DNA from: a virus
Lineage: Duplodnaviria > Caudoviricetes
Reading direction: 5' to 3' (one strand)
IMG/VR virus record: IMGVR_UViG_3300025053_000003
Coordinates: 1 to 64,000 of that record
DNA length: 64,000 bases
Below the pieces are notes generated by a model. It worked only from the letters and a program-made list of their open reading frames with translations, was not told where the DNA came from and did not search any database. Of this stretch, positions 4,170 to 60,180 are shown in pieces. The translations under genes and the position numbers were made by a program. Numbering within the stretch: position 1 is the stretch's first letter; every line of letters starts with the position of its first letter.

Positions 4170-4785
4170 TTACTTTTCTCCCATTCTTAATCCAAGTATC
4201 TTGTGTTACGTTCAGAGTCCCGATGTGAGCGTTTGTGCAACTGGTGTCAACAAAGATCTTGTATCCTAAATTTCTCACTTTAATGCAGAATCCAAAATCT
4301 TCACTGATAACTCCATTGTGATAAGGGTAATTCATCTCGAACCACTTATTTTTATCCATTCTTTTAAATACTTCTGTCTTAACCAATAAAGAAGCTGCGC
4401 CTACTGCATCAATTTGAACTAATTCGTTCTCTTCCCATTCGGTTATGTTTTTGAATCTGTTATTTTCTTCCTTGAACATAATCGGGTCATAGGGTTCTGA
4501 CCGTCTAAAACTCAAGCCCGACACTATCTGTTTGTCGTGCTGCAATAATTTAGGAATAGTATCAGGGTGGTGGCGATGATCGGTGTCAAGGAACAGTACA
4601 TGGCTAAATGAATCGTCTTTAAGAGCTGCATGAATTATCGAATTGCGTTGGTCGTCTACTCTGCCTCGGTTCCCGATTATTACGCTGTGTTGGGGTTTCT
4701 TTAATTCTATCCATGATTCGAAGAATTGGATATTGAGGAAGTCCCAATTACAGGGGAGACCGATGGCGATGTTTAATTCTCCCAT
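4159..4785 (-). CDS. Glycosyltransferase family 2 (GT-A fold)
   Basis: QRNSII, HVLFLDTD (DxD), IVSG, DAVGAASLLVKTEVF, SEDFGFC, KIFVDTS motifs. Confidence 0.85.
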   Translation of the reverse strand: MGELNIAIGLPCNWDFLNIQFFESWIELKKPQHSVIIGNRGRVDDQRNSIIHAALKDDSFSHVLFLDTDHRHHPDTIPKLLQHDKQIVSGLSFRRSEPYDPIMFKEENNRFKNITEWEENELVQIDAVGAASLLVKTEVFKRMDKNKWFEMNYPYHNGVISEDFGFCIKVRNLGYKIFVDTSCTNAHIGTLNVTQDTWIKNGRKVNGL

Positions 4786-5516
4786 TATAGAGGCCCGTTG
4801 ATTGCTAGTTCGGGGAAGTTTAACTTATGCAGCAATCCTTCCCTTATAATGAATTTATCTCTATCTAATGCTGCATTCCGTGGAGAATTAAAACCTGCGG
4901 TAGTAAATACAACCTTGCCGTTATACATTATCCTTGCTTGAAAACTATCACTGCCTTTATGATAACTTACGCCACAATATCCACTAGAATTCGAATCTCT
5001 TAATAACCTTGAATTTAACGAATTTACTTGACAAGTAACAAACCTGCAATTCTCTGGGGAGTAAGGTCCATCATTGTCTTCCCTATCAATTTCTAATCCT
5101 TCTGAATATGCATTAACTTTACACCAACCGATAAATTTTTGTGGGTCATTCAACCATTCATCACATACATAAATACCACGACCGCCATAATCTTTGTACT
5201 GTTTTTGATTTTTATTATAACAACGTCTCTTGACACTCAACCAAAGACTATAAAACTTATCGATATTATTTCTTTGGGAGAACCCGTGTTTTGTATTTCT
5301 TTCTTTAATTTTTTCTAAATTAAAACAACCACAAGAATTCGTATGTCCTGAAGTTAAAGAATACAATAGAACCTCGACTTTTGTTTTATCAACGCAATTA
5401 CATTCGCAAAGAAATCTCCGTCTTCCCCATTTATTTTTATCAATTTCTTCGACAATTTTTAATCTACCAAATTCTTGTCCAATTACTACATTAATTCTAT
5501 TCTGCCCACCTCTCAT
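4785..5516 (-). CDS. HNH homing endonuclease with C-terminal AP2 domain
   Basis: FGRLKIVEE..CECNC..SCGC; KRRCYN..YGGRGIYVCDEW; IDREDNDGPYSPENCRFVT; NSSGYCGVSYHK..FQARI. Confidence 0.9.
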   Translation of the reverse strand: MRGGQNRINVVIGQEFGRLKIVEEIDKNKWGRRRFLCECNCVDKTKVEVLLYSLTSGHTNSCGCFNLEKIKERNTKHGFSQRNNIDKFYSLWLSVKRRCYNKNQKQYKDYGGRGIYVCDEWLNDPQKFIGWCKVNAYSEGLEIDREDNDGPYSPENCRFVTCQVNSLNSRLLRDSNSSGYCGVSYHKGSDSFQARIMYNGKVVFTTAGFNSPRNAALDRDKFIIREGLLHKLNFPELAINGPL

Positions 5517-5550
5517 AGTATTCCTCCTATGCTAATCCATTTAATAAAAA

Positions 5551-5604
5551 TTGGGGAAAAAGATGGATTAAGTCTTCTTGTCAGGTTCGAATCCCTATCC
5601 CCAA
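5551..5604 (-). ncRNA. Structured HNH-leader RNA motif, copy D
   Basis: TTGGGG-ATAGG-GATTCGAA-CCTGAC-AAGAAGA-CTTAATCCA-TCTTTTT-CCCCAA, ~35 nt upstream of the HNH start. Confidence 0.75.
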
Positions 5605-5627
5605 AATAATATAATAATTTAAACTAC

Positions 5628-5948
5628 TTATGCAGCGAACACGACTAACCCTTTTACAACATGAATATTTGTGACGGCTCCAGAACTGAAGTCAATACCG
5701 GCTGTCAGTCCTACGACATATGCGTCCGCAGAACAAGAAGTTCCAAGGTCTGCGCTCGCCCCAGTTAAAATTAATTTATCCGCTGAGGCATCCCAAGTGG
5801 CGTTGCTTGATGCAGTGTCACCATACATGATCACATCTACGCCGGAATCGTCAACGCCGAAGGATACACTTGCAGCAGTTCCTGCAACTTTCCGTTTAAA
5901 AATTAATTTTCCAGATTCCCACGTTGATTTTACATTTGTTACTGGCAT
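5628..5948 (-). CDS. Hypothetical virion protein
   Basis: 106 aa ORF with AAGGAG RBS in the head module. Confidence 0.75.
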   Translation of the reverse strand: MPVTNVKSTWESGKLIFKRKVAGTAASVSFGVDDSGVDVIMYGDTASSNATWDASADKLILTGASADLGTSCSADAYVVGLTAGIDFSSGAVTNIHVVKGLVVFAA

Positions 5949-6025
5949 AATAATCTCCTTCTCCGTACCGGCTTTTATTCCGGTTTAAGGAAGCGGTTCC
6001 CCCTATTAAATTATTTTAAAACACT

Positions 6026-6334
6026 TTAAGTTTTCTTTTTCGGCCTTCCCGCTTTCTTCTTAGGCGGAGACTGAATCATTTTGTTCATCGGTGTCTCATG
6101 AATCATTTTATCTACTTCAGGGGCATCGATACTCTTTTGCTCTTCTTGTTGCTCTTTCTTCAATTCTGGTTCTTGCGTTTGTTTTACTGGTTTAGCGGTA
6201 GACGTTGCATCTACAATTTCGGCTACTCCTCTTTGGACTAATTCAAGAGCCTTTTGCTTGATAATAGTAAAGGTGTCCGGGGGGACGCGCCCGAGCCATT
6301 CACCTTTTACCATTCTTACTTTTAAATATTCCAT
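6026..6334 (-). CDS. Hypothetical protein downstream of the capsid genes, basic C-terminus
   Basis: 102 aa; GGGAG RBS; ends KKKAGRPKKKT. Confidence 0.75.
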   Translation of the reverse strand: MEYLKVRMVKGEWLGRVPPDTFTIIKQKALELVQRGVAEIVDATSTAKPVKQTQEPELKKEQQEEQKSIDAPEVDKMIHETPMNKMIQSPPKKKAGRPKKKT

Positions 6335-6369
6335 TTGTTCTCCCGGTTAATGGATTTAATTGATTTTAG

Positions 6370-6444
6370 TGGAGGCGGGATCGGGACTTGAACCCGAATA
6401 TTTAGGATATGAGCCTAAAAAGTTAACCATTACTATATCCCGCT
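6370..6444 (-). tRNA. tRNA-Met(CAT), initiator-like
   Basis: Cloverleaf: AGCGGGA/TCCCGCC acceptor, TTAGG-CTCATAT-CCTAA anticodon arm, TCGGG-TTCAAGT-CCCGA T arm, encoded CCA. Confidence 0.9.
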
Positions 6445-6523
6445 TAAAATTGGGGCATATTTCAGCCCCGTAATTTCCGCTATGTTTTATCCCTTAACCC
6501 TTTAAAAGATTAAGGAATAAGGG

Positions 6524-7006
6524 TTAAACGATTGCGGTAGGGGTAGAAGTCCCAGCAATAGTCCGAGGAGCAGACATAATACAAGCAACACTACCGGAAA
6601 CTGGAGAATCAGTCCCTTCAGTTACAGTAAGGCGGGCGAACTTGTCAGTGCCACTAAGTTCAGAAGCATTAACTTCCACCACCACCATACTCCCGGCCCC
6701 AGCGGCAGTCGTATAGCCTACAGCCGTGGCCGCAGTAACTGCCCCAAGGGTATCGCCAGAACTCGCTACCGCGTAAACAAACGGGATGGCGGTTGCAGTG
6801 CCAGGGGCAGTAGTGTCACAACTATCAACAGTGATCGTTGCGGTGCCAGTAGCGCCTACTCCACGGGAGATAACCCAAGTCGCTCTCTCAAAGTTAGAGA
6901 GATTCACGATATCGGTTGAAAATCCACCTTCATAGAGATCATCCATTGCAGCACCAGTAGGCATTGCGTTAACAAAATGTACTTCTTCAATCAGTCTTCC
7001 ACTCAT
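6524..7006 (-). CDS. Putative capsid decoration protein
   Basis: 160 aa, A/T/G-rich (TDIVNLSNFERATWVISRGVGATGTATITV); next structural gene after the major capsid protein. Confidence 0.65.
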   Translation of the reverse strand: MSGRLIEEVHFVNAMPTGAAMDDLYEGGFSTDIVNLSNFERATWVISRGVGATGTATITVDSCDTTAPGTATAIPFVYAVASSGDTLGAVTAATAVGYTTAAGAGSMVVVEVNASELSGTDKFARLTVTEGTDSPVSGSVACIMSAPRTIAGTSTPTAIV

Positions 7007-7028
7007 GATTTTATTCCTCCGTTATTTT

Positions 7029-7973
7029 TTATTGTGAACGTGCAGCAAACCAAAAACTACTACTTGAATTAAACCATCTTTGCCAAATTTCTCTGTTGTG
7101 GTTAGTTTTACCATGACAACTAGAGCATAAAGTTATTAAATTATCATCATCCGAATCGGTCTTTATATAATTTTTATGATGAATAACTAAAAATATTTTC
7201 TTGTTCCCTTTTCTTCCACAAAGTTGGCAACGAAAGTTGTCTCGTTTCTTTATCTTCTTTTTAAGTCTTTTATTAAAACTAGGAGAATATTCACCAAAAG
7301 ATATTCCTCCTAACCAAGTTGAAGATCCTTCACCAGTTTTACCAATTGACAAGCATTCATCAGAACAGTAAAATTTAGAGTGCCTTTCTGACACTGCTTT
7401 TGTTACCATTTTCCCCTTTTCGCATACAGAACATTTTACTTCTACTTGCGAAAAATTAGGATGATTCTCTCCTTGCCAATTTAAATGTTGCCAATTGTGT
7501 AAACACTTCCTATAACAAAAACAATTTTCTTTATTCTCTAAATCTTCCGGCCTAACAAAAATAATTTCATTACAATTTATGCAATTTGTTTCTACTTTAT
7601 TCCTGATATGATTTAAATAACACTTCCTAGAACAAAAACTTCCGTTTGTCTTTTTGTGTTCGTACTCTTTTCTTTTAAAATCACTACCGCACCCATCACA
7701 GGTAAGTGTCACATTTTTATATGATGATAAACATTTACGACTACAGCAGAATCTTTTATTTTTACGCTTATCATATCTTGACTTGTGAATCATAAATACT
7801 GTTTCACAATTTTCACAAATTACTTCTACTTGTTTAAACTTATCATTATTCCTACAAGTAGTATTGCAATAAAATCTTTTTGTTTTATTGGCGTTGTATG
7901 CCCGTTCAGTAATAATCTTTGGTTTGCCGCACGTTTCACATTTTACTTCAATTTTATTCGCTCTTTTACCCAT
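7029..7973 (-). CDS. HNH endonuclease with tandem CxxC...FCSxxC zinc-finger repeats
   Basis: Repeated CxxC/FCSxxC units; C-terminal RDNFRCQLCG..IHHKNYIKTD..NLITLCSSCHGKTN. Confidence 0.9.
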   Translation of the reverse strand: MGKRANKIEVKCETCGKPKIITERAYNANKTKRFYCNTTCRNNDKFKQVEVICENCETVFMIHKSRYDKRKNKRFCCSRKCLSSYKNVTLTCDGCGSDFKRKEYEHKKTNGSFCSRKCYLNHIRNKVETNCINCNEIIFVRPEDLENKENCFCYRKCLHNWQHLNWQGENHPNFSQVEVKCSVCEKGKMVTKAVSERHSKFYCSDECLSIGKTGEGSSTWLGGISFGEYSPSFNKRLKKKIKKRDNFRCQLCGRKGNKKIFLVIHHKNYIKTDSDDDNLITLCSSCHGKTNHNREIWQRWFNSSSSFWFAARSQ

Positions 7974-8009
7974 ACATACATACTCCCACTATAATCCCGT
8001 ATGATAATC

Positions 8010-8063
8010 AGTGCGGAAGTCAATCGGGAGATATTGACTTATCGGGTGCCCCCTATCCGCACT
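8010..8063 (-). ncRNA. Structured HNH-leader RNA motif, copy A
   Basis: AGTGCGG-ATAGG-GGGCA-CCCGAT-AAGTCAAT-ATCTCCCG-ATTGACTT-CCGCACT. Confidence 0.8.
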
Positions 8064-8078
8064 AAAGTTTAACTAATC

Positions 8079-9332
8079 TTACCGAGCCTCAAGAGTTACA
8101 ATCGGGGAGATTGTAGTTGCTGTGGATTGAGGAGGTGTGACTGCTGATTTCCAGGCGCAACTTCCGTCCATTCTGAAAACGAATTTATACGCTGTTTGGT
8201 CTGCGTCGAATTTTAGATGCACAGATGAACTATAAACACCATTTGCTTCTGCGCCAGCTTTAATTGCAACATAATACTGACTCCAATCTACAAGAATGAT
8301 ATCACCAGCAGAAGAAAGTGCAGAACAATGCTTGTTATATACAACTGGAAGACCCATCAAAGTATCAAATGGGCGACCGGCGGCCCCATTAGCCGGGAGC
8401 CAGACAGGAATTCCGCCTGTTCCTACGGCCATGGACATAGTGGCAAGGGTCGGGAGGCAAGCAGGATTTACCATCCAGATAGCATTTACCTTATCATTAA
8501 TACGGGTGTACATATTAAGGATATTCTCGAAGAGAATAGTATTTGCGCCCTGCCCAGTTTCCTTAGAAACGGTAACAAGAGCAGCAGAATTTAAGATCCC
8601 TTGCGGCTTACCAGCACCTGAGCCACGAATTAGAGCATCATTCATCTCAAAAGTCAAGGCGTCACGGAAAGAATCACGAAGAATAACTTCCATGGAAGCA
8701 GGGCTATCAGAGATCATTTCGTCAGTAACGAAAGCCATCAGGCCGAGTTTCTTCAGAGAAAGCCGGAGCTTACCGAACTTCATAGAGCTACCAGTGTGGG
8801 TGTCCTCTTCGTCCATCCAGGTGGCCTGAACATTACCATAAGTCTTGCCGGAACTCTCATCAAAGCCATTTACATAAGGCATTTCGATGGTGTTACGCTG
8901 AAGGGGGACCTTCCGAGTCCGACCGAATGCAAGGTCTTCCTGCATAACGGGACGCAGGAGATCAGAACTCCACTCAGGCGGGATAAGATAAGCACCAGCT
9001 TCGTTATCAGTAACATTCTGAGACGGAGAACCAGCAGCTTTGGTTTCCCACTTCTTCAACTCTTCAGAAACATTGCCGCGATTAGCCTTATAAACGTGAA
9101 CACCGAAGTTGCTCAAAGTTTTAAAGCCAGCAGTGGGGTCTTTGTCAATAGGGTCAGCACCCACCTGAATCCGCTGTTCAATCGGCTCAACAGCCGCCTT
9201 GATCTTAGCGTCAATTTCAGTAGCAAGTGCTTCCTTAAACTTAGCAACAGCCTCATCCACAACGCCAACCGCGCCCTTCGCAATTACTTCATTCAATTCT
9301 TCAACGGTCATAGTTTTCTTTTCAGTATCCAT
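8079..9332 (-). CDS. Major capsid protein, HK97 fold
   Basis: 417 aa; coiled-coil delta domain, AGAYLIPPEW, GSGAGKPQGIL, TLMGLPVVYN, FDADQTAYKFVFRMDG. Confidence 0.95.
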   Translation of the reverse strand: MDTEKKTMTVEELNEVIAKGAVGVVDEAVAKFKEALATEIDAKIKAAVEPIEQRIQVGADPIDKDPTAGFKTLSNFGVHVYKANRGNVSEELKKWETKAAGSPSQNVTDNEAGAYLIPPEWSSDLLRPVMQEDLAFGRTRKVPLQRNTIEMPYVNGFDESSGKTYGNVQATWMDEEDTHTGSSMKFGKLRLSLKKLGLMAFVTDEMISDSPASMEVILRDSFRDALTFEMNDALIRGSGAGKPQGILNSAALVTVSKETGQGANTILFENILNMYTRINDKVNAIWMVNPACLPTLATMSMAVGTGGIPVWLPANGAAGRPFDTLMGLPVVYNKHCSALSSAGDIILVDWSQYYVAIKAGAEANGVYSSSVHLKFDADQTAYKFVFRMDGSCAWKSAVTPPQSTATTISPIVTLEAR

Positions 9333-9439
9333 TATTTAAATCTCCTTTATCTCTTTGTTCGTTTGTTTAGATCGCCTAACATCTCTTAAATGTCTCCAGC
9401 GAAAATTTTCCTTGACGGAATGCTATTTTTATCGTATTG

Positions 9440-9479
9440 TTAAAATGGGAGGGTATACTCAGTCTTCCTCCCATTTTAA
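9440..9479. terminator. 13-bp hairpin between protease and capsid genes (terminator or mRNA stabiliser)
   Basis: TTAAAATGGGAGG-N14-CCTCCCATTTTAA. Confidence 0.55.
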
Positions 9480-9491
9480 AATTAAACTATG

Positions 9492-12026
9492 TTATTCAAA
9501 CTCAATAATACCTTTAGCCATTTTAATTCTGTCTTCTACTATTTCACTGATATTAATTTTACTGAATACTTCTTTTAAATTCTTAGTAAAAATATCCTGT
9601 ACCTGTTCAGGAGTAAAATTTAATTCGGTTTCTTTTTTAGTTGAAGTTAAAAATTCTACCATTTTAGTTTCAGGCATTTGGATTTCTAATCCTTTCTTCT
9701 TATTACTTCTTACATCGATAATTAATTGCCGTTGTGCTTTCATTTGATCTAAAGATTTAACAAGCGCCTCGTCGATAGAAATGTTTAGATCTTCAGCAAT
9801 CATCTTTGCAAATTCCACTAATTCTTTTAAATGAGAACCAGAATATCCAGCAGTCTCTTCCGCAAATTTCTCTATTATTACCTTATCGGCATAATCAACA
9901 AAAAACTTTAATAATTTAATTCTATTTTCTTTATTTGGTAAAGAAAAATTTATAATATGGTGAAATCTACCTGGGCGATCAATCAATGCTTCTGGCATTT
10001 GCTCAGGAAAATTTGAAGTTAAGACAGTTAAAACGCCTTTATTGTCTCTAATCCCATCCATTTCAGTTTTGAGAAGATCAATCGTATAATCTTTCAACCA
10101 AGTATCAATATCTTCAAGAAAAAATACAGAAGGAGCAAGATCCCTTGCCATTTCAAAACCAAGAGCTAATGCACCAGCAGCCCCATATCTAAAATCTTTA
10201 GAAGATGCCCAAATAAAAGTAGTATCAGGCTGATTCATCAATACCTTACCAGTCATCGTCTTGCCTGTCCCTGGGGGGCCGATAAGCATAATCCCTCTAC
10301 TGGGGGAAGTCTTAGTAAGTCTATCAATGCTACCTTTGACTTTATTCTTCGCTTCTTCATCAGGGAAAATTACATCATCCCAACCAATTTCTTTTTTATC
10401 AAGAAATTCTCCCATAATAGAGAATTTTTCACCTTTCAGTAGATTGTTTTCTTTTACCCACTGAATGGCATCCATAGCAAATGATTTATTTAGTTCAATA
10501 TTTTTATCGGTAGTATAAATATTAATCCCATACCCACCCCAATCTGGTTCAATCTGGAATACAAATCTTTCACCAGAATCTGCTTTATAAAACTGTGTCC
10601 CTTGAGTTAAGAATTCTTCTGATCTTTTTGAATTCAACTGGATAACTGAATGGCGAAGAGGAATTTCCCCACCATTTCCATACAAATTCCTCTGATCTAA
10701 TAATTCGTGTTTAGTTAGTGAATTTCTAAAGCCAGATAAATAATTACCTTTCATTGCGCTAGGGATAAAGAAATCAGTAACAAACATATTCTTGATTTTG
10801 CAATTCAGGAATTTACAGAAGACCTTTAGTTCAAAACCAGCAGGTTCAGTTCTTACTGAAGTAATATCAAATTCTTCTTCGCCATACTGTTTTGAGATAA
10901 TTTTCTTATCTTCATCAGAAATATCTTTAATCTTGCAAGATTTCAGAATATTTGTTATTCTATCTACTTCTTCTTGAGTAACCTTTTCTACAGTCGCTAC
11001 TGATTCAATACTCTCTTCTTTTTGAACTTCTAAGATAATATCATTGATTTCTTTTTTAATGCTTTTAACTTCGTCTGTCGCTTTTTCTTCGACGACATCA
11101 ATAGTTTCTGGTTCAGCTACTTCTCCGATTTTCTCTATTTCATTAATAATTTCAAGGTCTAAACCTTTTTCTTCGGCGTCTTCAAGGACTTCCACATTTA
11201 CTATTTTTTCAATTGGTTCAGCATCTTCGACAGTCTCAGTCTCTACTACTGGTTTAGCATCGACAACTTCTTCAATCGTTTCTGATTTTTCTTCTACTGC
11301 ACCTTCGTTTTCTACGGTTTCCTGAACCTCTTGTACCTCTTCGATTACTTCTTCTGGTTCATCAAGTGATTTTTCACTGAGGTTAATAAATCCGATTACT
11401 TTTGCTTTATCTTCCATTGGGAAATCCGGTAGAGAATCCGGCTGGGTGGAGAGGAGTTCGATATATTCTGGGGAGGATTTAGCGTCTTCTGCGAAATCCA
11501 TTACACACTTAGTCTTAATCATGCCAGAAGCAGATCGTTCCACCAGCGCATTCATGTGATCAGGGACAACTGCTGCGCTTACCTCAAACAATTCCACTTT
11601 CTTGTAAACCCGATTAGGCAATTTTCCATTCCTATTATATTTAATAATATCTGCTTCTTTAAAATCTTCCCTTTCGAGATAGTCAAACGCACGGAAGCCC
11701 ACAGAGAACGCATTGAGCACCCCATCCCGGTACAGCTCATAGAATTCTTGTCCTTCCAAAGTTGAAGCGAACTTAACCTTGAATTTTAAGCCTTGTCCCG
11801 GAATTACCCGTGCCCAAAGTGCTTTACCGATAGGAGGCCTGTCATATTGATGGAACGCGGGGATAACCGGATTTTTCAAAAAGTTCTCTAAATCCCAAGC
11901 TTCGTCTTCGATAAGGTCGCCTGACCTGTCAATGGAGTCTGACTTATTTGCCCATGCAACTACTGATTTCTCTTCGTCATTCACTTCCTTTTTAAAGCAA
12001 GTGGCGAACATTTTATTTTCAATCAT
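9492..12026 (-). CDS. HK97-type prohead protease fused to an acidic linker and an AAA+ ATPase
   Basis: N-terminus FHQYDRPPIGK, LNAFSVGF, LFEVSAAVVP; Glu-rich linker; GPPGTGKT, FFLEDID, LTSNFPE, ALIDRPGRF. Confidence 0.9.
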   Translation of the reverse strand: MIENKMFATCFKKEVNDEEKSVVAWANKSDSIDRSGDLIEDEAWDLENFLKNPVIPAFHQYDRPPIGKALWARVIPGQGLKFKVKFASTLEGQEFYELYRDGVLNAFSVGFRAFDYLEREDFKEADIIKYNRNGKLPNRVYKKVELFEVSAAVVPDHMNALVERSASGMIKTKCVMDFAEDAKSSPEYIELLSTQPDSLPDFPMEDKAKVIGFINLSEKSLDEPEEVIEEVQEVQETVENEGAVEEKSETIEEVVDAKPVVETETVEDAEPIEKIVNVEVLEDAEEKGLDLEIINEIEKIGEVAEPETIDVVEEKATDEVKSIKKEINDIILEVQKEESIESVATVEKVTQEEVDRITNILKSCKIKDISDEDKKIISKQYGEEEFDITSVRTEPAGFELKVFCKFLNCKIKNMFVTDFFIPSAMKGNYLSGFRNSLTKHELLDQRNLYGNGGEIPLRHSVIQLNSKRSEEFLTQGTQFYKADSGERFVFQIEPDWGGYGINIYTTDKNIELNKSFAMDAIQWVKENNLLKGEKFSIMGEFLDKKEIGWDDVIFPDEEAKNKVKGSIDRLTKTSPSRGIMLIGPPGTGKTMTGKVLMNQPDTTFIWASSKDFRYGAAGALALGFEMARDLAPSVFFLEDIDTWLKDYTIDLLKTEMDGIRDNKGVLTVLTSNFPEQMPEALIDRPGRFHHIINFSLPNKENRIKLLKFFVDYADKVIIEKFAEETAGYSGSHLKELVEFAKMIAEDLNISIDEALVKSLDQMKAQRQLIIDVRSNKKKGLEIQMPETKMVEFLTSTKKETELNFTPEQVQDIFTKNLKEVFSKINISEIVEDRIKMAKGIIEFE
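9883..9910 (-). promoter_or_regulatory. Sigma28/FliA-type promoter inside the protease gene, facing the capsid gene
   Basis: TAAA-GTTTTTTGTTGATTAT(16)-GCCGATAA. Confidence 0.6.
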
Positions 12027-12030
12027 TATT

Positions 12031-12297
12031 TTATTCCTCCTTGTTCTCGTCTTTATCTTCTTTCTCTACTTTTCTTATTTCAACTTCTCCGTACAATTCT
12101 TCGGTTTCCAGTTCGTCATCTTTTATAATAAGTTTTCCATCTTTATCTTCTTTAAATTTAAGAATATATCCCAATTCTTCATCAGCAGTCCTACAATAAT
12201 TTACTTTAATTCCATTCAAAAATGCCGTATATTTGTAAGCCTTTGGTGTATAACCAATATCATCTTGATTTACTGATGCTCTCATTTTAAGCCTCAA
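12031..12297 (-). CDS. Hypothetical protein (likely start ATG 12285)
   Basis: ORF packed directly upstream of the protease gene. Confidence 0.65.
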   Translation of the reverse strand: MRLKMRASVNQDDIGYTPKAYKYTAFLNGIKVNYCRTADEELGYILKFKEDKDGKLIIKDDELETEELYGEVEIRKVEKEDKDENKEE

Positions 12298-12463
12298 ATT
12301 GTCCTAATTTATAATCCTTCTTCTCGTCCGTGTGCAGGCAAATACCTTTTATAATAATTGGTTTATATTCATAACTTTTATTAAAATCATATTTAATGTT
12401 ATTCGAACAATTTTCACATGCCTTTGGATTTGTATAAGGTAGAGTGCAATTACATGTTCTCAT
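12287..12463 (-). CDS. Small Cys-rich protein (58 aa, not in the ORF track)
   Basis: MRTCNCTLPYTNPKACENCSNN...; GGAGG RBS; fills the gap between neighbours. Confidence 0.6.
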   Translation of the reverse strand: MRTCNCTLPYTNPKACENCSNNIKYDFNKSYEYKPIIIKGICLHTDEKKDYKLGQFEA

Positions 12464-12464
12464 T

Positions 12465-13691
12465 TTATTCCTCCCAACTGACCCACTCTTTATTAGTTAA
12501 TTCTTTATCTTCAATTCTAATAGGCAGATTAAATGTAATACCATGAACAGGGTGTGTAATAAAGAAATTTTGGGTAGGTGGTTCAAATGGATAATTCCCC
12601 TTCGCTGCATATTCACTAAATCCAACCAATGAACCGTTGCATATACACCGTTGAGCAAATGTCATAGATTGATGGAAGTGCCCAATCAATAATACATCGT
12701 AATCTGCATTCATTGACCTAGCAGAAGAGCGTTTCTTCATGTCACCGCGCAAAATCGGTCCAAGCGCGCCGAGGATTCCGTTTCCACCGGAAAATTGCGA
12801 ACCATGTGTGATTCTATAAGTGTAATCGTACACCTTATATTGAGCATCTTCACCATCTGCAATTAAAAATTTAATTCTTTTGTCATTTTCAAAGAACTTA
12901 GCAAGGAGTTGATATTGAAGCCAGTCCATTGAATCGTATGCGTACCCCTTCGCTCTCGGTTTAAGAGTCAATCGCCCATGATTCCCGGCTACACAGGGAA
13001 CAAATACCTTCCCAAATGAATCAGCTAATTTTTTAATTGCTTCAATCATTGCATCTAAAAGTTCAAGGCTCACTTGTAATACTTCTTTTTCACCTGTTAT
13101 CTTCAATTCGTCATGAATGAGTCCAGTGCTGAGGTCACCAAGTAGAGGGACAATGATCCCTGGATACTTAGCATTAGCTATATGATTAAATGATAAATCA
13201 ATAGCTTTATCAACCACTACTTGCAATCTATGTTTAGCAATTTCAATATTGTATTTATTTACTCCGAATATCTGGTCAGGATCAACCACCTCTCCAAAAT
13301 GCAGGTCGCTAATACATAAAGTAGGTACTCCAATCGTCCCATCATTAAAATTTGACTCTTTACTTAGCCATTCTGGGATGATATGATTGGAATCTTTTAA
13401 ATTGAGAATAAATCTCTTTATATATTCAGCGGAAACGCTATTTTTATTTGCTTCCACTAATTCTTTTCTTAAGTCCTGGATTTGTGATTTAAGGATAAGT
13501 GTTTCGTTACCATTTTCTGATTGTACTTTAAAAATTTCTTTGTATCTTGTGTTGTTTTTAGCCCGCCTCAAGTGGTTGCGTACTGTTGTTCTGGGAAGGT
13601 TAAGCTCCCTGGCTGTTGCTCTGGCGTTTTTATCCAGTTTCAGGAATGTTTCAACAATCAATTCTTGGATCTCTTGTGATTCTGTAGTCAA
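12465..13691 (-). CDS. Calcineurin-like metallophosphoesterase with N-terminal HTH
   Basis: SDLHFGE, LLGD, VAGNHG, ITHG, LIGHFH; N-terminal ARATARELNLPRTTVRNHL. Confidence 0.85.
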   Translation of the reverse strand: MTTESQEIQELIVETFLKLDKNARATARELNLPRTTVRNHLRRAKNNTRYKEIFKVQSENGNETLILKSQIQDLRKELVEANKNSVSAEYIKRFILNLKDSNHIIPEWLSKESNFNDGTIGVPTLCISDLHFGEVVDPDQIFGVNKYNIEIAKHRLQVVVDKAIDLSFNHIANAKYPGIIVPLLGDLSTGLIHDELKITGEKEVLQVSLELLDAMIEAIKKLADSFGKVFVPCVAGNHGRLTLKPRAKGYAYDSMDWLQYQLLAKFFENDKRIKFLIADGEDAQYKVYDYTYRITHGSQFSGGNGILGALGPILRGDMKKRSSARSMNADYDVLLIGHFHQSMTFAQRCICNGSLVGFSEYAAKGNYPFEPPTQNFFITHPVHGITFNLPIRIEDKELTNKEWVSWEE

Positions 13692-13707
13692 AATTTTTCT
13701 CCCTTAA

Positions 13708-14655
13708 TTATGACTTATTAAAGCAATCTTTATGGGTATGATGTGAGCGACAGACTAAAATCTGGTGGCTCATATTATCCGCTTCATTTAAATATAAAGA
13801 AACCATTAAATTATGATGAATAAATAAGTCTTTCTGATCAAATTCTACACCGCAAACTTCACAAAAATTATACCCAAACTCATCTAATTGCAATTGGAGC
13901 AACATTTCTCTATTCAAATCCTGATTACACCTAGCTTGTATTATAAGATCTCTCTGCGATTTTGGCAGAAATTTTGCTTTAAAAACATCACACTCCTGCT
14001 TACATTTTTGTGAATCATATAAGTGACATTCTTTCCCATCACTAGTATTAAGTGATGTTATCCTGTTACTTACTTCCCTTACTGTAGGATAAAAATATTT
14101 ACCACATTTAAAACATTTACATAACATGAAGCCATGCTCATTTTCAATTGGAGACTCCTCAACTGTTAACCTGTCAGCAAACGTTTTAAATAACGCCTTG
14201 CCATTAGCATATTTTTTCTTTTTTAAAACCAATTCGTCTTTATTTTCAATTCTATATTTCTTATTATATTCCGATTTTTTATCTTTATTGACCTCGTATA
14301 ACTTACGCGCCGCCAATAATTTCTTCTCTCTGTTTCTATAATACGAAAGTCTTTCCTTTTCCCTTATTCTGTCTCTATTTAATTCTCTCTTTTCCTTACT
14401 TTTCTTAGAAATATATTCCTTATTCTTTTTAGTGTAATTCCTTTGTCTTTCTTTTATATATTCTGAATTTTCTAAATATACTTCTTTGCTTTTCTTCAAA
14501 AATATTTCTCTATTATTTTCATAATATTTTCTTTTATTTTTAGAACAACATTCTTTGCAGTCAGTCCTCCTCCCATCACTAGAACCTTCTCTTCTGTAAA
14601 ACTCTCTTAACTCCTTTTCTTCTCCACATTTTGTACAAACTTTCGTTTCTTCCAT
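13708..14655 (-). CDS. HNH endonuclease (N-terminal CxxC..CxxC, basic coiled coil, C-terminal HNH)
   Basis: KVCTKCGEEK..CKEC; FCEVCG..FIHHNL..NMSHQILVCRSHH. Confidence 0.85.
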   Translation of the reverse strand: MEETKVCTKCGEEKELREFYRREGSSDGRRTDCKECCSKNKRKYYENNREIFLKKSKEVYLENSEYIKERQRNYTKKNKEYISKKSKEKRELNRDRIREKERLSYYRNREKKLLAARKLYEVNKDKKSEYNKKYRIENKDELVLKKKKYANGKALFKTFADRLTVEESPIENEHGFMLCKCFKCGKYFYPTVREVSNRITSLNTSDGKECHLYDSQKCKQECDVFKAKFLPKSQRDLIIQARCNQDLNREMLLQLQLDEFGYNFCEVCGVEFDQKDLFIHHNLMVSLYLNEADNMSHQILVCRSHHTHKDCFNKS

Positions 14656-14690
14656 TTTAATACCTCCGATAGGTATCCCGAGTTAAATTA

Positions 14691-14750
14691 TTAGCACAGA
14701 AATGAGACTCGGATTTTCTCACTTGTCGGGGATCAGCCTATCTGTGCTAA
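14691..14750 (-). ncRNA. Structured HNH-leader RNA motif, copy C
   Basis: TTAGCACAG-ATAGG-CTGATC-CCCGAC-AAGTGAGA-AAATCCGAG-TCTCATTT-CTGTGCTAA. Confidence 0.8.
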
Positions 14751-14754
14751 ACTA

Positions 14755-16140
14755 TTATCTATTTAAAATTTCCTTCATCTTCTCAGGTGACGATACAACA
14801 TTCCCTTCGCCTGTGCCTTCGGCAATACTAGCTAAAAGGCCAGATGGGGTTGTAAAGTTAACTGGGATAAAAGGCTGTTTAAACACGCCACCAAGTTCAG
14901 GTAATCCAAGTTTATCTCTTTCTTCGTCTACTGAAGTGATTGAGGTTTGGATGTGTTTTACGCTTTGATTCAACTCGAACAATTTATCAGATGGTATACA
15001 ATTATCATAAGCGACGAAAAGCTTTTCGTCATAACGCCAAATCATCTTCTCATTTAGTTTTTCTTCAATCCTTCTAAGCCTTGGCTGAATAGTAAACTGC
15101 ATAAATGTCGCAATGGCAGCATCAGCATTGTTCCTATTGGCCTCTGAGCTGTACATACCCAATGCTTGCCCAAACGCATTAAGCACAGCCTCTTTGATCC
15201 TGTCGCGCCCTCCTAGGTATGACATATCCTTTGGAGAATTGTTCGTGAAAGGTTTGTACTTCAACCCATGATCAAGGAGGGGCATAGAACCACCTTTTGA
15301 CGCACCGCCTAACATTTGTTTGATCTCAATTTTCAGACGTTCAAACTCATGGTCTCCTAACTCGGAATCAGTTTCAAAAACACCATTTAGATTATTTCCC
15401 CCATTCCTGAAAATCGCGGCCTCATATTCATTAATGGATTTAGCTAATCCATATTCTTCCGCGATACTAGTGACGGGGCTACTTCCATAATATTGATTCT
15501 TTGGGTTGGGCATTTTAAAATGGATAATTGAGCGTTCTGATAAATCAATCTCTTCTGTACTTTTTATATACTTGTACCCAGATATAAACTTCTTAGCATC
15601 TGGCATTATTTTACAATTTTGAGGGGGGATCAACCAAATCTCCCTTGGGACCCCAAATTTATCCTCTAATATATGCCAGAAAGCGTTTCCTGTCAACTCC
15701 TGATACAGCTGAGTCATTTCGAACAAATCAAAGGAATTTACAAATGGGTTTACATTTGTTTTCAGATCTAAAAACGGATGGTCAAGCACCTCTTCGAAGG
15801 ATGATGCCTTTCTAATAGCAGGAATATTGTTCAGGAATGGATTTTCTCTTATGAATCTTTCCTGTTTTATGTCAACTGCTTTCGTTTGTACTCGTTTTAC
15901 CCTTTGGCTTTTGTTGTTCTTCGCAACATAAAGTCTCAATGGTGTATTCGCTACAGTCGAAGCATTCTTATTCGATGCTACATAAATCCACGACCTGTAG
16001 CTGTTTATCATTGCATAAAAATCTTCATCACTATGCAACTCTCTCCCATATTGATAGGGATACAGGTAAGGAAGCAAAGCCCCCTTCCTCTTTCCCCCGG
16101 CAGCCTTTAACTGTACTTCATATGAAAATGGATTAGCCAT
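14755..16140 (-). CDS. Portal protein, HK97 family
   Basis: 461 aa; YQELTGNAFW, SIIHFKMPNPKNQYYGSSPV, FRNGG, PLLDHGLKY; position after terL. Confidence 0.95.
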   Translation of the reverse strand: MANPFSYEVQLKAAGGKRKGALLPYLYPYQYGRELHSDEDFYAMINSYRSWIYVASNKNASTVANTPLRLYVAKNNKSQRVKRVQTKAVDIKQERFIRENPFLNNIPAIRKASSFEEVLDHPFLDLKTNVNPFVNSFDLFEMTQLYQELTGNAFWHILEDKFGVPREIWLIPPQNCKIMPDAKKFISGYKYIKSTEEIDLSERSIIHFKMPNPKNQYYGSSPVTSIAEEYGLAKSINEYEAAIFRNGGNNLNGVFETDSELGDHEFERLKIEIKQMLGGASKGGSMPLLDHGLKYKPFTNNSPKDMSYLGGRDRIKEAVLNAFGQALGMYSSEANRNNADAAIATFMQFTIQPRLRRIEEKLNEKMIWRYDEKLFVAYDNCIPSDKLFELNQSVKHIQTSITSVDEERDKLGLPELGGVFKQPFIPVNFTTPSGLLASIAEGTGEGNVVSSPEKMKEILNR

Positions 16141-16143
16141 ATG

Positions 16144-16923
16144 TTATCCTTCGATTGTATTTGGTATAATTTGAGTATTGTTGATTCTATCTTTAGCTAT
16201 ATTAAAATAGGTTAAATCTTTTTCTATTCCTATAAATTTTCTACTTAAGTTTTTACATGCTACGCCTGTTGTGCCACTGCCCATTGTAAAATCTAATACG
16301 GTTTCTGATTCATTTGTATAAGTTTTAATTAAGTATTCCATTAATGCTACTGGTTTTTGGGTGGGGTGAATAGTCTTACCTTCGCTTTTTATTTCTATTA
16401 CACAAGTGGGATAATTTTCATTTTTACATGTATATCCAGAAGTATGGTTAGTTTGTGATTCTCTATGATATTTAAGATCGCTTGTGTTCTTGTTTTGTTT
16501 AACAATCGTAGTTCCTGGCCTTATTCCTTGAGGATTATAATTCATTCTCTTTTCCCCGGCTTGCAATAAGTGTCCAATAATTCCCTTAGAAAATACACAA
16601 ATATTCTCGGTTATTTTTAATGGCATATTAGGAGCATGTGGAAAATTACTCCCTTTGCTTTTCTTCCACACCCAATCATATTTGTACATTTTTATATTAC
16701 TCATCCGTAATGCACTACTAAACGGTTCACTGCCGAACAATACAATAGCACCATTAGGTTTAATAACCCTCTTTAGCTGCTCCCACATAGCCTCAAACGG
16801 GATAACTGAATCCCATTTACAAGCAGTAGTCCCGTAAGGAGGATCGGTGATAATAGCATCTACACTCCCATCAGGAATGCCTTTCATTACTTCTAAACAA
16901 TCACCTTGATATAGATTTATCAT
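16144..16923 (-). CDS. N6-adenine/N4-cytosine DNA methyltransferase (beta class)
   Basis: GDCLEVM, TDPPYG, HPTQKPV, VLDFTMGSGTTG. Confidence 0.92.
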   Translation of the reverse strand: MINLYQGDCLEVMKGIPDGSVDAIITDPPYGTTACKWDSVIPFEAMWEQLKRVIKPNGAIVLFGSEPFSSALRMSNIKMYKYDWVWKKSKGSNFPHAPNMPLKITENICVFSKGIIGHLLQAGEKRMNYNPQGIRPGTTIVKQNKNTSDLKYHRESQTNHTSGYTCKNENYPTCVIEIKSEGKTIHPTQKPVALMEYLIKTYTNESETVLDFTMGSGTTGVACKNLSRKFIGIEKDLTYFNIAKDRINNTQIIPNTIEG

Positions 16924-17355
16924 TTACTGTTCCATGATTTTCTTAAATTGATTAAATCTATTACGGACAAAATCTTCGTGCATTATTTTCTCATTCCAAA
17001 TTTTACTTTCAATATCATAATATTCGCAAACAACCGATATTTTATCTTCGTTGTAATTTAAAGAGCATTCGCCGTATTCGTTCTGGCAGAAGTCTTTGAT
17101 ATAAAAATTTATTCCTTCATATACAAACATTAACCCTTTAGGGAATTCCATTTCAAGTCGTTTAGCGAAGAAATAAAAGTTATCTTCTTTGTTGTTCAGG
17201 AGGATAGTTAAATTAAAAGTTAAGTAGTTAAATACTTTAATTAACCTTTGTGTTATAAGTTGGAGTGGTTTTAATAACTTGTTTGTTATATTTGTTAAGT
17301 TTTTGGTTTTCAATCGATCATCCTTATGTGTGGAACGGCTGGGGAGTAGAAACAC
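16924..17355 (-). CDS. Hypothetical protein (true start probably ~17150)
   Basis: The 5' part of the ORF overlaps the terL tail; the 3' half abuts the MTase. Confidence 0.45.
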   Translation of the reverse strand: MFLLPSRSTHKDDRLKTKNLTNITNKLLKPLQLITQRLIKVFNYLTFNLTILLNNKEDNFYFFAKRLEMEFPKGLMFVYEGINFYIKDFCQNEYGECSLNYNEDKISVVCEYYDIESKIWNEKIMHEDFVRNRFNQFKKIMEQ

Positions 17356-19058
17356 ATTCTTAAAGCGGCAAATTTATCATCACTTTTGCCGCTTAATTTC
17401 TTCTTAATCGTTTTTTTATCACTTACTTTGATTTTGCCAGAATTAGGATCTTCTTTATAGTCATAACATAACATCTGACAAAATCATTCTGCATCTTCAG
17501 GTAACATAGCTGCTGGTTCTTTTTTTAACCATTCAGCCACCGCCCATGCAAGTTCATCCCTTGTCAGGGCCAGCTTTCCAAATTCACACTTTTTATTACT
17601 TGGAGAACTGACATATACCTTTCTAATGTTGAAATGAAGTCTCTTCATTTCTTTGTGACACATAGGACATTGAAATATTGTAGTATCAAGATAGGTTTTA
17701 TTAACTCCTTCGCAACTAATATTTTCACACTGCCAATAAAACATTGAGCTTACTTTCGGCGGAATAGCTGCACCGATACCATCTGCCTCAACCTGCGCCT
17801 GTAATGCATTAAGATCACAATAAGTTTGAGCTAATCTATCCGCAGATCTATCAAGATTTATCCCAGACCACGGAATAAAACTAGAAACAAAATTTCCATA
17901 TTTTATTGCAATACACGAGTCATCTGCGCCTTCATCTGCGACATCCATCCCGAGTATGGGTCTAATTCCATTTGTTGCCTGATCGCCATATTGCGCTTTA
18001 TACAATTTCCATCTTGTAAACGCATTATCAATGTCAACTTCATTAAATAGTGCATTTTGACTAGCGGCAGGGTATCGACCTAGTGTAATCGTTGCAAATT
18101 GAGAATCTTTTATTCTTCTCCATCCTCCCTCCAATGGTGGGTAAATTTTACCTGAGCTTGAAACACCTACAGCGCCTACTAGGCAAGATGGAACTTCAAA
18201 ACAATTAATCTCATCGGGTTCTTCATCTTCTCTAACTGGAACAGTCCATTCCATAATACGTTGAATCGTTTTATCCCGGCTAACTGCCCCATGTATTACT
18301 TCTTCACCAGTGACAACATTCGGGTGATTCAGTGCATTTAAATGAACTATATGTCCTAATTTATCTTTCCAAACCTTATAAGTATAACCAGATTTTTGGC
18401 GGGGGTTATATAACATTAAAAGACGAACGTGACTACCGCTAAGGCAGCCGTCAATCGCTTCAAAAATTTCATCGGGACACCCGTCAGCCTCATCTACTAT
18501 GTACAGTTGGTATTTGGCGTGCTTGCCGCTGAAGGACGCTTTTCTGCGTTCTGGGGTTCCAGATGTAGGTATTGCCTTCCCGATTAAAAAATGTTTTAAA
18601 TTTATATCATCGTCATCATCCTTTGCATTAACATCATCAGTTATTTTTAACGTAGTCAATACATGATTTTTAAATAATGATTTTTTATACCTATAAAAAA
18701 CATTTGCTATTTCACTAAACAACCCCTGTTTTAAATTTTCTTCTGGTGGAGCCGCAGCACAAATTACCTGAGAATCAGGGAAGCATAAATAAAACCAAGC
18801 TGCCAAATGAGAAGCGATAAATGTTTTGCCAGTCCCATTCGATGACATAGCCAAGGTAATTTTATTGTCCTTTACACTATTTGCCACCCGAATTAAATCA
18901 TCATATAAATTTTTAACACCTAATTCTTTTTCTAAAAATTCAATCGGATTTTCTTGGTATTTTTTTAAGTCTCCATGGAGTAAATTAGCTACTTGGTCTT
19001 CTCCAAATGCACTTATTAAATAATCTAATGCTTGATCGTCTAAATTTGTCATTAACAA
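17310..19058 (-). pseudogene. terL: Large terminase with an in-frame TGA at 17484-17486
   Basis: SSNGTGKT, IVDEADG, LYNP, GMDVADEGADDS; frame stays open after the TGA for 57 codons including GKIKVSDKK..SDDKFAAL. Confidence 0.85.
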
Positions 19059-19907
19059 CCTTTATGTTCATGGCATTCATCACATACTATTATTTGATGG
19101 CTCATATCATCAGCCATTGTATGGTCTTTGCCAACCATTATGTTGTGATGGATGATTAATTCTTCTCGCGGAAGAGGCCTGCCGCATTTTTCACAGTAGG
19201 TATAGCCAAATTCGTCTTCTTGGTTATCCAGTAATGCTTTGCGATTAATGGGCTGGTTGCAACGTGCTCTTTTTGTTATATTCCTCAATTCTCTTGGCGT
19301 TGTTCTTGCTCTGTATACGCCACACGATAATTTATGCTCATCACAACAATATAAATGAATTTCTTTCCCATCGTTATTATTATTTAACGAATTAAGTCTA
19401 TTTGATACCTGTCCGTTATTTGGGATAAAATACTCTTTGCAATGATAACATCTACACATAATAAATCCGTTTTCATCGCAAATTGGCTCCTCATCAATTG
19501 TTAATTTATTTTTATATGTTTCATAAAGAGCTGAGCTATTCCTATATTTTTTAGATCTCTATAGCACATATTCCTTGTTATTTTCGTAATATTTTTTACC
19601 TCTTTCTTGGAATAAACTTTTATTCTCTTCTCTTCTCTTCTCTTCTAATTTTTTCATCACTTAATATCTTATCTCTATTTTTCTCGTACCACTTCTTACC
19701 GCCTATTTTATGCTTTTCTTTATTATTTTCGTAATATTTTTTACCGCTATCAGACTTATGAACATTTGGAGAACTTTTTAAATAAATTTGTCTACATTCT
19801 TTACATAAAGTGTCCTTTCCAAATTTACAGCCTTTATGATTGACAAAAGCATCTAATTCCTTTTCTTCACCACAAACTCTGCACTTCTTCGTTTTAATCT
19901 CTTCCAT
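19052..19907 (-). pseudogene. Disrupted HNH endonuclease, paralog of 13708..14655
   Basis: Frameshift in (GAAGA)4 at 19623-19646 plus in-frame TAG at 19559-19561; joined halves match the 13708 architecture. Confidence 0.85.
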
Positions 19908-19940
19908 CTACGCCTCCTTCAAGCGTTCCTTATTACTAAA

Positions 19941-19991
19941 AGTGGAAATAGAGCAAGGATTTCTCTACTTGTCGGGTGCCCCCTATCCACT
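19941..19991 (-). ncRNA. Structured HNH-leader RNA motif, copy B
   Basis: AGTGG-ATAGG-GGGCA-CCCGAC-AAGTAGAG-AAATCCTTG-CTCTATTT-CCACT. Confidence 0.8.
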
Positions 19992-49932: not shown

Positions 49933-50018
49933 GCCGCCTTAGTTCAGTTGGTAGAACACCTGATAAATGACTTTATGTAATCAGGTTGTCGTGGGTTCGA
50001 TTCCTACAGGCGGCTCCA
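49933..50018 (+). tRNA. tRNA-Thr(TGT)-like with a 17-nt anticodon loop
   Basis: GCCGCCT/AGGCGGC acceptor, GTTC/GAAC D stem, CCTGA/TCAGG stem, GTGGG-TTCGATT-CCTAC, CCA; loop TAAATGACTTTATGTAA. Confidence 0.8.
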
Positions 50019-59195: not shown

Positions 59196-59738
59196 GTGAT
59201 CCGATTATTAAGATTGGGAAGCATATTTTCTATAAGAGTTAAAGGAGAATTTATGGCACAAAATATTATAACGGCAATAGGTTTGTTCATTGGAATTTGG
59301 TTCACTTTTGTGAATGTTTCTAGGATTTTCCTTAAAGTAAAAGTCCCTTCGATTAACTTCATTATTATGGCGTTAGGGTGGACGGTTTTCATTGCGATGA
59401 TGTGGGTGTTTTAGAATATGGAACGTGGTGAAATAGGAATGAAATTAGAAGCAGGCGAAATAGTCTATACTTCAACAGGGAGAGAAACTACTCCCTTCCC
59501 TAAAATTGACTGCGCCTCAAACAGAAAAGCTATTAACACCTTAAAGAGAATCGACAACTGGCTTATATTGAATGCGATCCAAGAAGCAGAATCAAGGTGT
59601 GACAATTTTAACCTTAGCCAATTTTTAGCAAATACAATTCAGCCGAATCAGGCAGACAAAGATTCGGCTGAATTGTATTTGTTCGGGGATTTTATCCCTC
59701 CTGTTGTATTGAAGCCTATATTGAAAAAGTTAATTTAA
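59196..59738 (+). other. Two hypothetical ORFs (membrane protein ~59232..59414; 59418..59738)
   Basis: ORF track, RBS. Confidence 0.65.
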
Positions 59739-60180
59739 ATGGGGCGATAAATGGCTTAAGCCTTCACCACCCAAATTAAAATCAAGGATTAATGCATTAG
59801 AAAAACCGAATAGGTTTGAACAACATTATTTGTATTGTTTTGATGAATGTAAGCATAGCTGCCCATTATTTAATTTGCGTTCTGACCCATTTAAAAGTGT
59901 AATTCAGAATTTTACATCTGGAGAACTTAAAGTTTTTGCTGATGAGGTAAAACATCGTCAATTTTTAGAATACGGTCACAACTTCTGTGAACTAGGCGAT
60001 TGTGAAGATGATAAAGAAGGGCCGTACCACGCACATCATGTAATCCCGAAATCAGTAGAATGGATATTTGGGCTTGACCCTGACAATGGGATTGTTGTAT
60101 GCCAGAAATGCCACGACAAGTTGCATAAGGGCGAGTGTAGTACAGGTGCACTAGCTCATAGAAATAAATGCAAGGAATAG
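59739..60180 (+). pseudogene. 5'-truncated HNH endonuclease, paralog of 13708 and 19052
   Basis: Open frame upstream of TTG 59830 (KWGDKWLKP..KSRINAL..HYLYCFDECKHSC), then HAHHVIP..DNGIVVCQKCH; no RBS or leader. Confidence 0.65.

Follow-up and report, generated by a model that had tools for sequence, protein, structure and literature searches.

A three-way-junction RNA leader before phage nuclease genes: divergent int-alpA members with a possible role in translation

We analysed a 64-kb stretch of DNA (hereafter the window) from the 74.7-kb record IMGVR_UViG_3300025053_000003 of an uncultured groundwater phage, in which four copies of a structured RNA leader (A to D, in order of coordinates) stand on the minus strand in front of nuclease genes. 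Judged by sequence and predicted fold, these leaders are divergent, AT-rich members of int-alpA, an RNA family already catalogued in Rfam as RF02996. The loop of their third helix (L3) is complementary to two downstream words, one a putative decoy site (S1) and the other located in the Shine-Dalgarno (SD) region of the following gene (S2), and this double complementarity is the main clue to function. With moderate confidence we read the leader as a gate that acts in cis on translation, accompanies nuclease genes and represents a divergent int-alpA branch. It probably controls the amount of nuclease made.

Results

Four leaders with a common fold

The junction pattern ATAGG-N3-10-CCYGAYAAG matched exactly four places in the window, all of them leaders, with 0.02 matches expected by chance. 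R1, a covariance model built from ten sequences, found four copies with E-values from 1.6e-15 to 4.4e-6, the next best match having E 1.7. The four minus-strand copies sharing a three-way junction, as proposed in a preliminary description of the window, are thus all present, and pattern and model pick out just these four. No fifth copy was found by R1 in the remainder of the 74.7-kb record. The helix order is the same in all copies: P1, AUA, a short GG(G)/CC(C) hairpin P2, GAY, P3 and P1'. P3 comprises 7-8 bp starting with AAG, and P3' abuts P1' with zero spacer in each case. The sequences of P1 and P3 are unique to each copy while the pairing is preserved in all four, as had been noticed at the outset. 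The minimum-energy fold computed with ViennaRNA gives P1, P2 and P3 for copies B, C and D, and a further hairpin, P4, in C and D; in copy A, P1 is weaker and the fold differs. P1 of leader B can be extended to 8008-8065.

The distance from P1' to the ATG is 33-36 nt in the window, which corrects the distance given in the preliminary description. Similarly, the claim of an identical sequence shared by two leaders was right and its attribution to the first two copies was not: GGATAGGGGGCACCCGA is common to 8011-8062 and 19941-19991, that is, to leaders B and D. The gaps between the upstream stop codon and P1 vary from 4 to 23 nt, and coupling to upstream translation was therefore dropped as a general rule.

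Assignment to int-alpA

An Rfam search of the window returned nothing on the leaders, either at the gathering score (35.8 bits for RF02996) or at E-values up to 10. When Rfam was run on the relatives (loci denoted L with a number), RF02996 coincided exactly with R1 matches. The gathering score was reached in L012 (46.7 bits), L120, which is Escherichia phage Bas81 (42.6), L001 (42.3), L088 (40.4), L013 (38.5), L004 (36.3) and L068 (35.9), and L042, L050 and L064 fell slightly under it. About a third of the relatives tested pass this score, and the AT-rich members, including those of the window, fail. R1 scores the window copies (28.7-60.1 bits) in the same range as the Rfam-passing members (26.2-66.4 bits), and 98% of cells are paired in a joint alignment of both. 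As one model covers both groups and relatives pass RF02996, the window copies can be placed as divergent members of the catalogued family. The preliminary description could not assign the leader to any named family and regarded an Rfam match as removing novelty; given the third of tested relatives that pass, the claim of novelty falls.

The likeness extends to detail. Both groups have the helix order P1, (C/A)UA, G/C hairpin, GA(A/Y)AAG, P3 and P1' with no real spacer, and the window copies accordingly show P1, NUA, a short G/C hairpin, GANAAG, P3 and a direct P1'. In the Rfam consensus the 3' tail AgGG, which corresponds to S1, faces CCuU of the P3 loop; in the window copies, too, L3 is complementary to the tail just past P1'. 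There are also differences. The window copies, whose P1 and P3 are AT-rich, are missed by the Rfam model even at E 10, neither S2 nor P4 is modelled by Rfam, and the genomic context is that of nuclease genes in a structural operon, not the integrase and alpA genes that the name int-alpA implies. The Rfam-passing L088, L068 and L120 likewise precede HNH/HNH_3 or GIY-YIG genes.

The int-alpA motif reportedly stems from the survey of 224 motifs by Weinberg et al. in 2017. The main text of PMC5737381 contains no discussion of int-alpA. We found no functional study of the leader or of int-alpA in the literature; the candidate-RNA catalogues PMC10690425 and PMC8040213 may include the leader.

Covariation and gene association in the wider family

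Scanning IMG/VR with the pattern GATAGG-N3-10-CCCGAYAAG returned 118 loci, 53 of which have the complete fold with zero spacer between P3' and P1' according to a simple descriptor. R1 gave 50 and a further 10 matches in viral loci beyond the window, and four in cultured phages: Bas81, Vibrio phage phiV208, Aeromonas phage 62AhydR11PP and Klebsiella phage KLPPOU148. In Bas81 the leader (458-521 of the record) precedes an HNH gene adjoining the large terminase gene. The carrier phages are many and unrelated, with G+C contents from 33% to 80%. A BLAST search of E. coli genomes with the Bas81 leader gave no match, and a scan of genome contigs with an Rfam-consensus pattern yielded nearly all chance matches (2 R1 matches in 100 loci). 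The AT-rich contig L113 contains three R1 matches, so that multiple leaders per genome occur in other phages as well; L019 additionally holds a RAGATH-18 RNA at 2344-2415 (69.5 bits).

Alignment statistics were calculated on the 43 distinct family sequences of the R1 alignment. In 98.2% of cells the bases pair, compared with 73.7% after shuffling, and 164 cells are changed on both sides, compared with 43. Pairing falls to 43-55% once the 3' partners are slid by 1-3 columns. At the third position of P3, 26 sequences have a G-U pair and 16 a G-C pair, a distribution that restricts the structure to the gene strand. In this pattern-collected family the letters of the junction, AUA and GAYAAG, hardly change, and the stems are free to vary.

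An open reading frame (ORF) starts 26-49 nt past P1' in 48 of the 59 R1 matches, on the same strand every time. Among the downstream ORFs examined with Pfam (n=45) were HNH_3 (10), HNH (3), HNH_5 (1), GIY-YIG (3) and a few other nuclease folds, together with two helicases, two glycosyltransferases, one resolvase and one MerR-type protein; PHROGs labels most of the remaining ORFs as HNH or homing endonucleases. Of the interpretation in the preliminary description, these results support a strand-specific, covarying junction at a fixed distance before the starts of nucleases from unrelated families. A specificity for HNH genes is not borne out, as GIY-YIG nucleases and the helicase, glycosyltransferase, resolvase and MerR-type genes lie downstream too.

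On the upstream side, the leader begins 1-27 nt past a stop codon in 35 of the 45 cases having an upstream ORF. Such a position would also suit an RNA processing or stability element, which would mark or protect the nuclease mRNA at its 5' end once the late polycistronic transcript has been cut, in the manner of a nuclease-resistant knot or a tRNA-like signal for processing. The meeting of P3' and P1' without a spacer, like that of the tRNA T stem and acceptor stem, adds to the case, and a junction combined with a hairpin and with loop pairing just downstream is a topology that recalls exonuclease-resistant viral RNAs (xrRNAs). We nevertheless think this explanation distinctly unlikely, as it leaves the tracking of the SD word by L3 (see below) unexplained, and as no self-cleaving ribozyme, xrRNA, tRNA or tRNA-like family of Rfam matches the window leaders. 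A hammerhead-like core and a tRNA-like fold were considered and rejected, no model matching. ARAGORN detected only two true tRNAs in the window; it reports a tRNA-Met at 6370-6444 (-), between leaders A and B, and a tRNA-His at 49933-50018 (+) with the anticodon written atg (unusual A34).

Complementarity of the P3 loop to two downstream words

S1 is located 3-16 nt past P1' in all measured members but one, mostly at 5-11 nt. In most members S2 precedes the start codon by 4-10 nt, at or overlapping the SD. In 27 of 37 members it lies within the loop of the small hairpin P4, which is itself 5-10 nt ahead of the start codon. The best run complementary to L3 averages 5.9 nt; with shuffled or permuted loops the mean is 4.3-4.5 nt and did not exceed 4.8 nt in 200 trials. 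Of 39 members, 29 have two distinct sites of 5 nt or more, compared with 5.4 (at most 10) when the loops are permuted. The predicted duplex energies are close (L3:S1 -7.2 and L3:S2 -6.1 kcal/mol).

All four window copies have S1 sites of 5-8 nt. L3 of copy B, AUCUCCCG, faces S1 CGGGA and S2 UGGGAG; that of copy C, AAAUCCGAG, faces CUCGGG and UCGGA, the latter overlapping the SD GGAGG (14663-14667); and that of copy D, AAAUCCUUG, faces UAAGGA and AAGGA. In some members the SD-proximal word is not SD-like (such as GTCAA or TATTCAA), and S1 copies the word even there, from which it can be inferred that the constraint is pairing to L3.

Palindromic P2 loops and exchanged modules

Of 20 distinct P2 types, 11 contain a 6-nt palindrome, compared with 1.9 expected by shuffling (maximum 6). 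The P2-loop palindromes seen in the family are CTGCAG, CTCGAG, TCTAGA, TTCGAA, TGGCCA, AGCT and GATC. In the window, copies A and C have palindromic P2 loops, holding UUCGAA in A and GAUC in C (P2 at 14728-14738), and copies B and D (GGGGGCACCC) are without them. The module GGGGGCACCC is common to leaders B and D (19974-19983 in D), and the module GGCTGATCCCC to leader C and the ortholog of leader D in the relative L130 (5568-5619). P2 modules common to different leaders suggest, at the level of sequence, that segments are exchanged between copies, and the palindromic loops would permit loop-loop dimers.

Palindromic loops that could pair between molecules are what one might expect of a trans-acting small RNA (sRNA), the class in which Rfam places int-alpA. 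This reading is very unlikely in our view: the leader keeps the same orientation and a fixed distance relative to the start codon that follows, L3 co-varies with the SD of its own gene, and no terminator follows P1'. The same palindromes could instead belong to a signal at the DNA level, namely a site for recombination or homing, or a promoter, where the nuclease cassette meets its surroundings. The occurrence of the GGCTGATCCCC module at two different sites would agree with this, as would, weakly, one variant contig that diverges from the window inside leader D. Every copy is on the coding strand, however, the compensatory changes preserve RNA helices, and the G-U pairs would be A-C mismatches on the opposite strand, which makes a DNA signal highly improbable. 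Both of these explanations are disfavoured by the G-U pairs together with the way L3 tracks the SD word.

Nuclease genes behind the window leaders

All four leaders precede genes of His-Me finger nucleases according to PHROGs (Table 1), and the three architectures described earlier were recovered: those of nucleases A and B, and a third shared by C and D, with N-terminal CxxC ribbons and a C-terminal HNH-like motif. That four HNH genes follow the leaders needs qualification for the gene behind copy D, which is not whole. Its ORF 19620-19907 represents only the N-terminal zinc-ribbon part and ORF 19052-19459 the HNH-like C-terminal part, with a 160-nt gap between them. The orthologous site in L130 has an intact 446-aa gene, and nuclease D looks like a decaying homing endonuclease. 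Upstream of the window leaders are the genes for the major capsid protein and the portal, an ORF of 59 aa that follows the small terminase gene, and an unknown ORF of 106 aa. A fifth HNH gene (~59737-60180, plus strand) has no leader, just as had been stated for the HNH near 59739.

Table 1. Leaders, downstream sites and nuclease genes in the window
Feature	Coordinates	Strand	Details
Leader A three-way junction	5551..5604	-	R1 29.7 bits, E 2e-6
Leader A helices	P1 5599-5604/5551-5556; P2 5584-5595; P3 5573-5579/5557-5563; L3 5564-5572	-	
Leader A downstream sites	5522..5539	-	S1 TGGATTAG 5532-5539, 8 bp with L3; SD AGGAGG 5523-5528
Nuclease A	4785..5516	-	243 aa, HNH endonuclease, phrog_374, E 3e-58
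Leader B three-way junction	8011..8062	-	R1 60.1 bits, minimum-energy fold; L3 8025-8032
Leader B downstream sites	7983..7999	-	S1 CGGGA 7995-7999; S2 = SD TGGGAG 7983-7988; both pair with L3
Nuclease B	7029..7973	-	314 aa, C-terminal HNH domain PF01844
Leader C three-way junction	14691..14750	-	R1, fold; P1 9 bp; L3 14708-14716
Leader C downstream sites	14659..14682	-	S1 CTCGGG 14677-14682; P4 14659-14677 carrying S2 TCGGA 14665-14669
Nuclease C	13708..14655	-	315 aa, N-terminal CxxC zinc ribbons, C-terminal HNH-like motif
Leader D three-way junction	19941..19991	-	R1 49.7 bits, fold; L3 19954-19962
Leader D downstream sites	19910..19932	-	S1 TAAGGA 19927-19932; P4 19910-19926 with S2 = SD AAGGAGG 19913-19919
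Nuclease D, broken	19052..19907	-	ORF 19620-19907, 95 aa, and ORF 19052-19459, 135 aa

Presence and loss of leader and nuclease in relatives

In L130, whose large terminase (TerL) is 90% identical to that of the window phage, the intact nuclease gene mentioned above is preceded by the orthologous leader, with compensatory changes in P1 (A-U to U-A) and P4 (C-G to U-A). Where copies A and B stand in the window, L259 likewise carries leaders, each followed by a gene of nuclease size. In L119 (TerL 48% identical), the small terminase gene is directly followed by that of TerL and the portal gene directly by the next gene; neither leader nor nuclease is present. In L262 (capsid 68% identical) the capsid gene is not followed by a nuclease; a decayed leader is present at 4299-4352 (R1 17.9 bits), with P1, P3 and L3:S1 intact and the junction and P2 degenerate, which suggests that the nuclease ORF alone was lost there. 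From these four relatives it can be concluded that leader and nuclease occupy the same sites, and that loss of the nuclease can leave a remnant of the leader behind. The idea that the leader travels with nucleases is supported by its recurrence with unrelated nuclease families in many phages and, at the same sites in relatives, with nucleases of different size.

Three joints in metagenome contigs (19055->19982, 4773->5946 and 7144->7911) were not used, as their sides amount to just 26-44 nt at 80% likeness; the first, considered as an empty site, is better read as a different nuclease allele, like that of L130. A TerL search of metagenome contigs found no relative.

The large terminase ORF of the window (17484-19058, minus strand) ends at residue 524, and close relatives have 578-579 aa. 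The missing ~54 C-terminal residues may be encoded by the next ORF, 17310-17474 (-). Metagenome contigs differ at 17478-17485 by substitutions and a one-base shift, and the short TerL would reflect either a frameshift in the record or an assembly variant.

Discussion

A model to explain the double complementarity of L3 is the following. Each nuclease mRNA would carry one of the elements as its 5' leader; at the three-way junction P3 continues directly into P1, and the GGG/CCC hairpin P2 projects from it. L3 would hold one word at a time, S1 or S2. Pairing with S2 would mask the ribosome site, and formation of the L3:S1 pseudoknot would free it. In this way the leader might set or switch how often translation starts on the mRNA of a nuclease that could do harm and whose gene is transcribed within a strongly expressed structural operon. 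Candidates for shifting the balance are the order of folding, binding of a factor or ligand to the conserved junction, and RNA dimerisation via the P2 loop, which is often palindromic. A more far-reaching version of the model, which we consider unlikely, assumes a true two-state switch that diverse phages would use to gate selfish nucleases as well as other mobile-element genes; a pocket at the conserved junction would sense a signal from host or phage, or two leaders would pair through palindromic P2 loops, and L3 would then flip between decoy and ribosome site.

The letters of the junction appear to be conserved as in a binding pocket, and this leads to the question of whether the leader is a riboswitch that senses a ligand or factor, the junction and L3:S1 serving as sensor and binding stabilising the pseudoknot so that the SD is freed. 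In addition to the near-invariant junction letters amid stems that are all variable, two mutually exclusive pairings of similar energy and the inclusion of the S1 tail within the motif by the Rfam consensus would be in accordance with such a function. No metabolic theme is apparent among the downstream genes, on the other hand, and there is no candidate ligand, and we judge a riboswitch of this type unlikely. In riboswitches of the preQ1-II and SAM-II types, pseudoknot pairing between a loop and a downstream sequence involves the SD as expression platform. The leader resembles them in its loop-to-downstream pairing at the SD and differs from them in having no known ligand and no match to these families in Rfam, and in preceding genes that are non-metabolic.

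Several observations weigh against the translation gate that we favour. As for the pseudoknot, members with a long P1 and a linker of 4-6 nt could form L3:S1 in cis only if P3 folded back along P1, and such folding back would be unusual for a junction of this kind, as the spacer from P3' to P1' is absent. The decoy role of S1 is putative, and in copy A the match between L3 and the SD is weak, amounting to 4 nt only. As for the junction, the invariance of its letters is overstated, since the family was collected via a sequence pattern and aligned to R1, and the Bas81 copy departs from them, with CUA and GAAAAG instead of AUA and GAYAAG. Autoregulation by the encoded protein is unlikely in view of the helicase, glycosyltransferase and MerR-type genes downstream. 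Finally, Rfam types int-alpA as 'Gene; sRNA' and gives its function as unknown.

The proposed translation gate can be compared with the hairpins at the ribosome binding sites of T-even homing endonuclease genes (I-TevI and others), where RNA structure at the 5' end can occlude the ribosome binding site and so limit the nuclease made from read-through transcripts (see the review PMC2988022). The T-even hairpins are simple and local, are not known to share a sequence or junction, and a late promoter within the hairpin relieves them. In the window family SD complementarity is present, and the fold is a conserved, multi-helix three-way junction with a putative decoy site, not a simple local hairpin; the family is spread over many phage groups.

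Conclusions

The entry int-alpA has been an orphan of Rfam, and AT-rich members of the family escape its model. The evidence points to a cis-acting leader before homing-endonuclease genes, with a loop matched to the ribosome site of its own gene. The cultured carriers Bas81, phiV208, 62AhydR11PP and KLPPOU148 make the leader directly testable. If the proposed role is true, it would represent a widespread means of tolerating selfish nucleases inside highly expressed phage operons.

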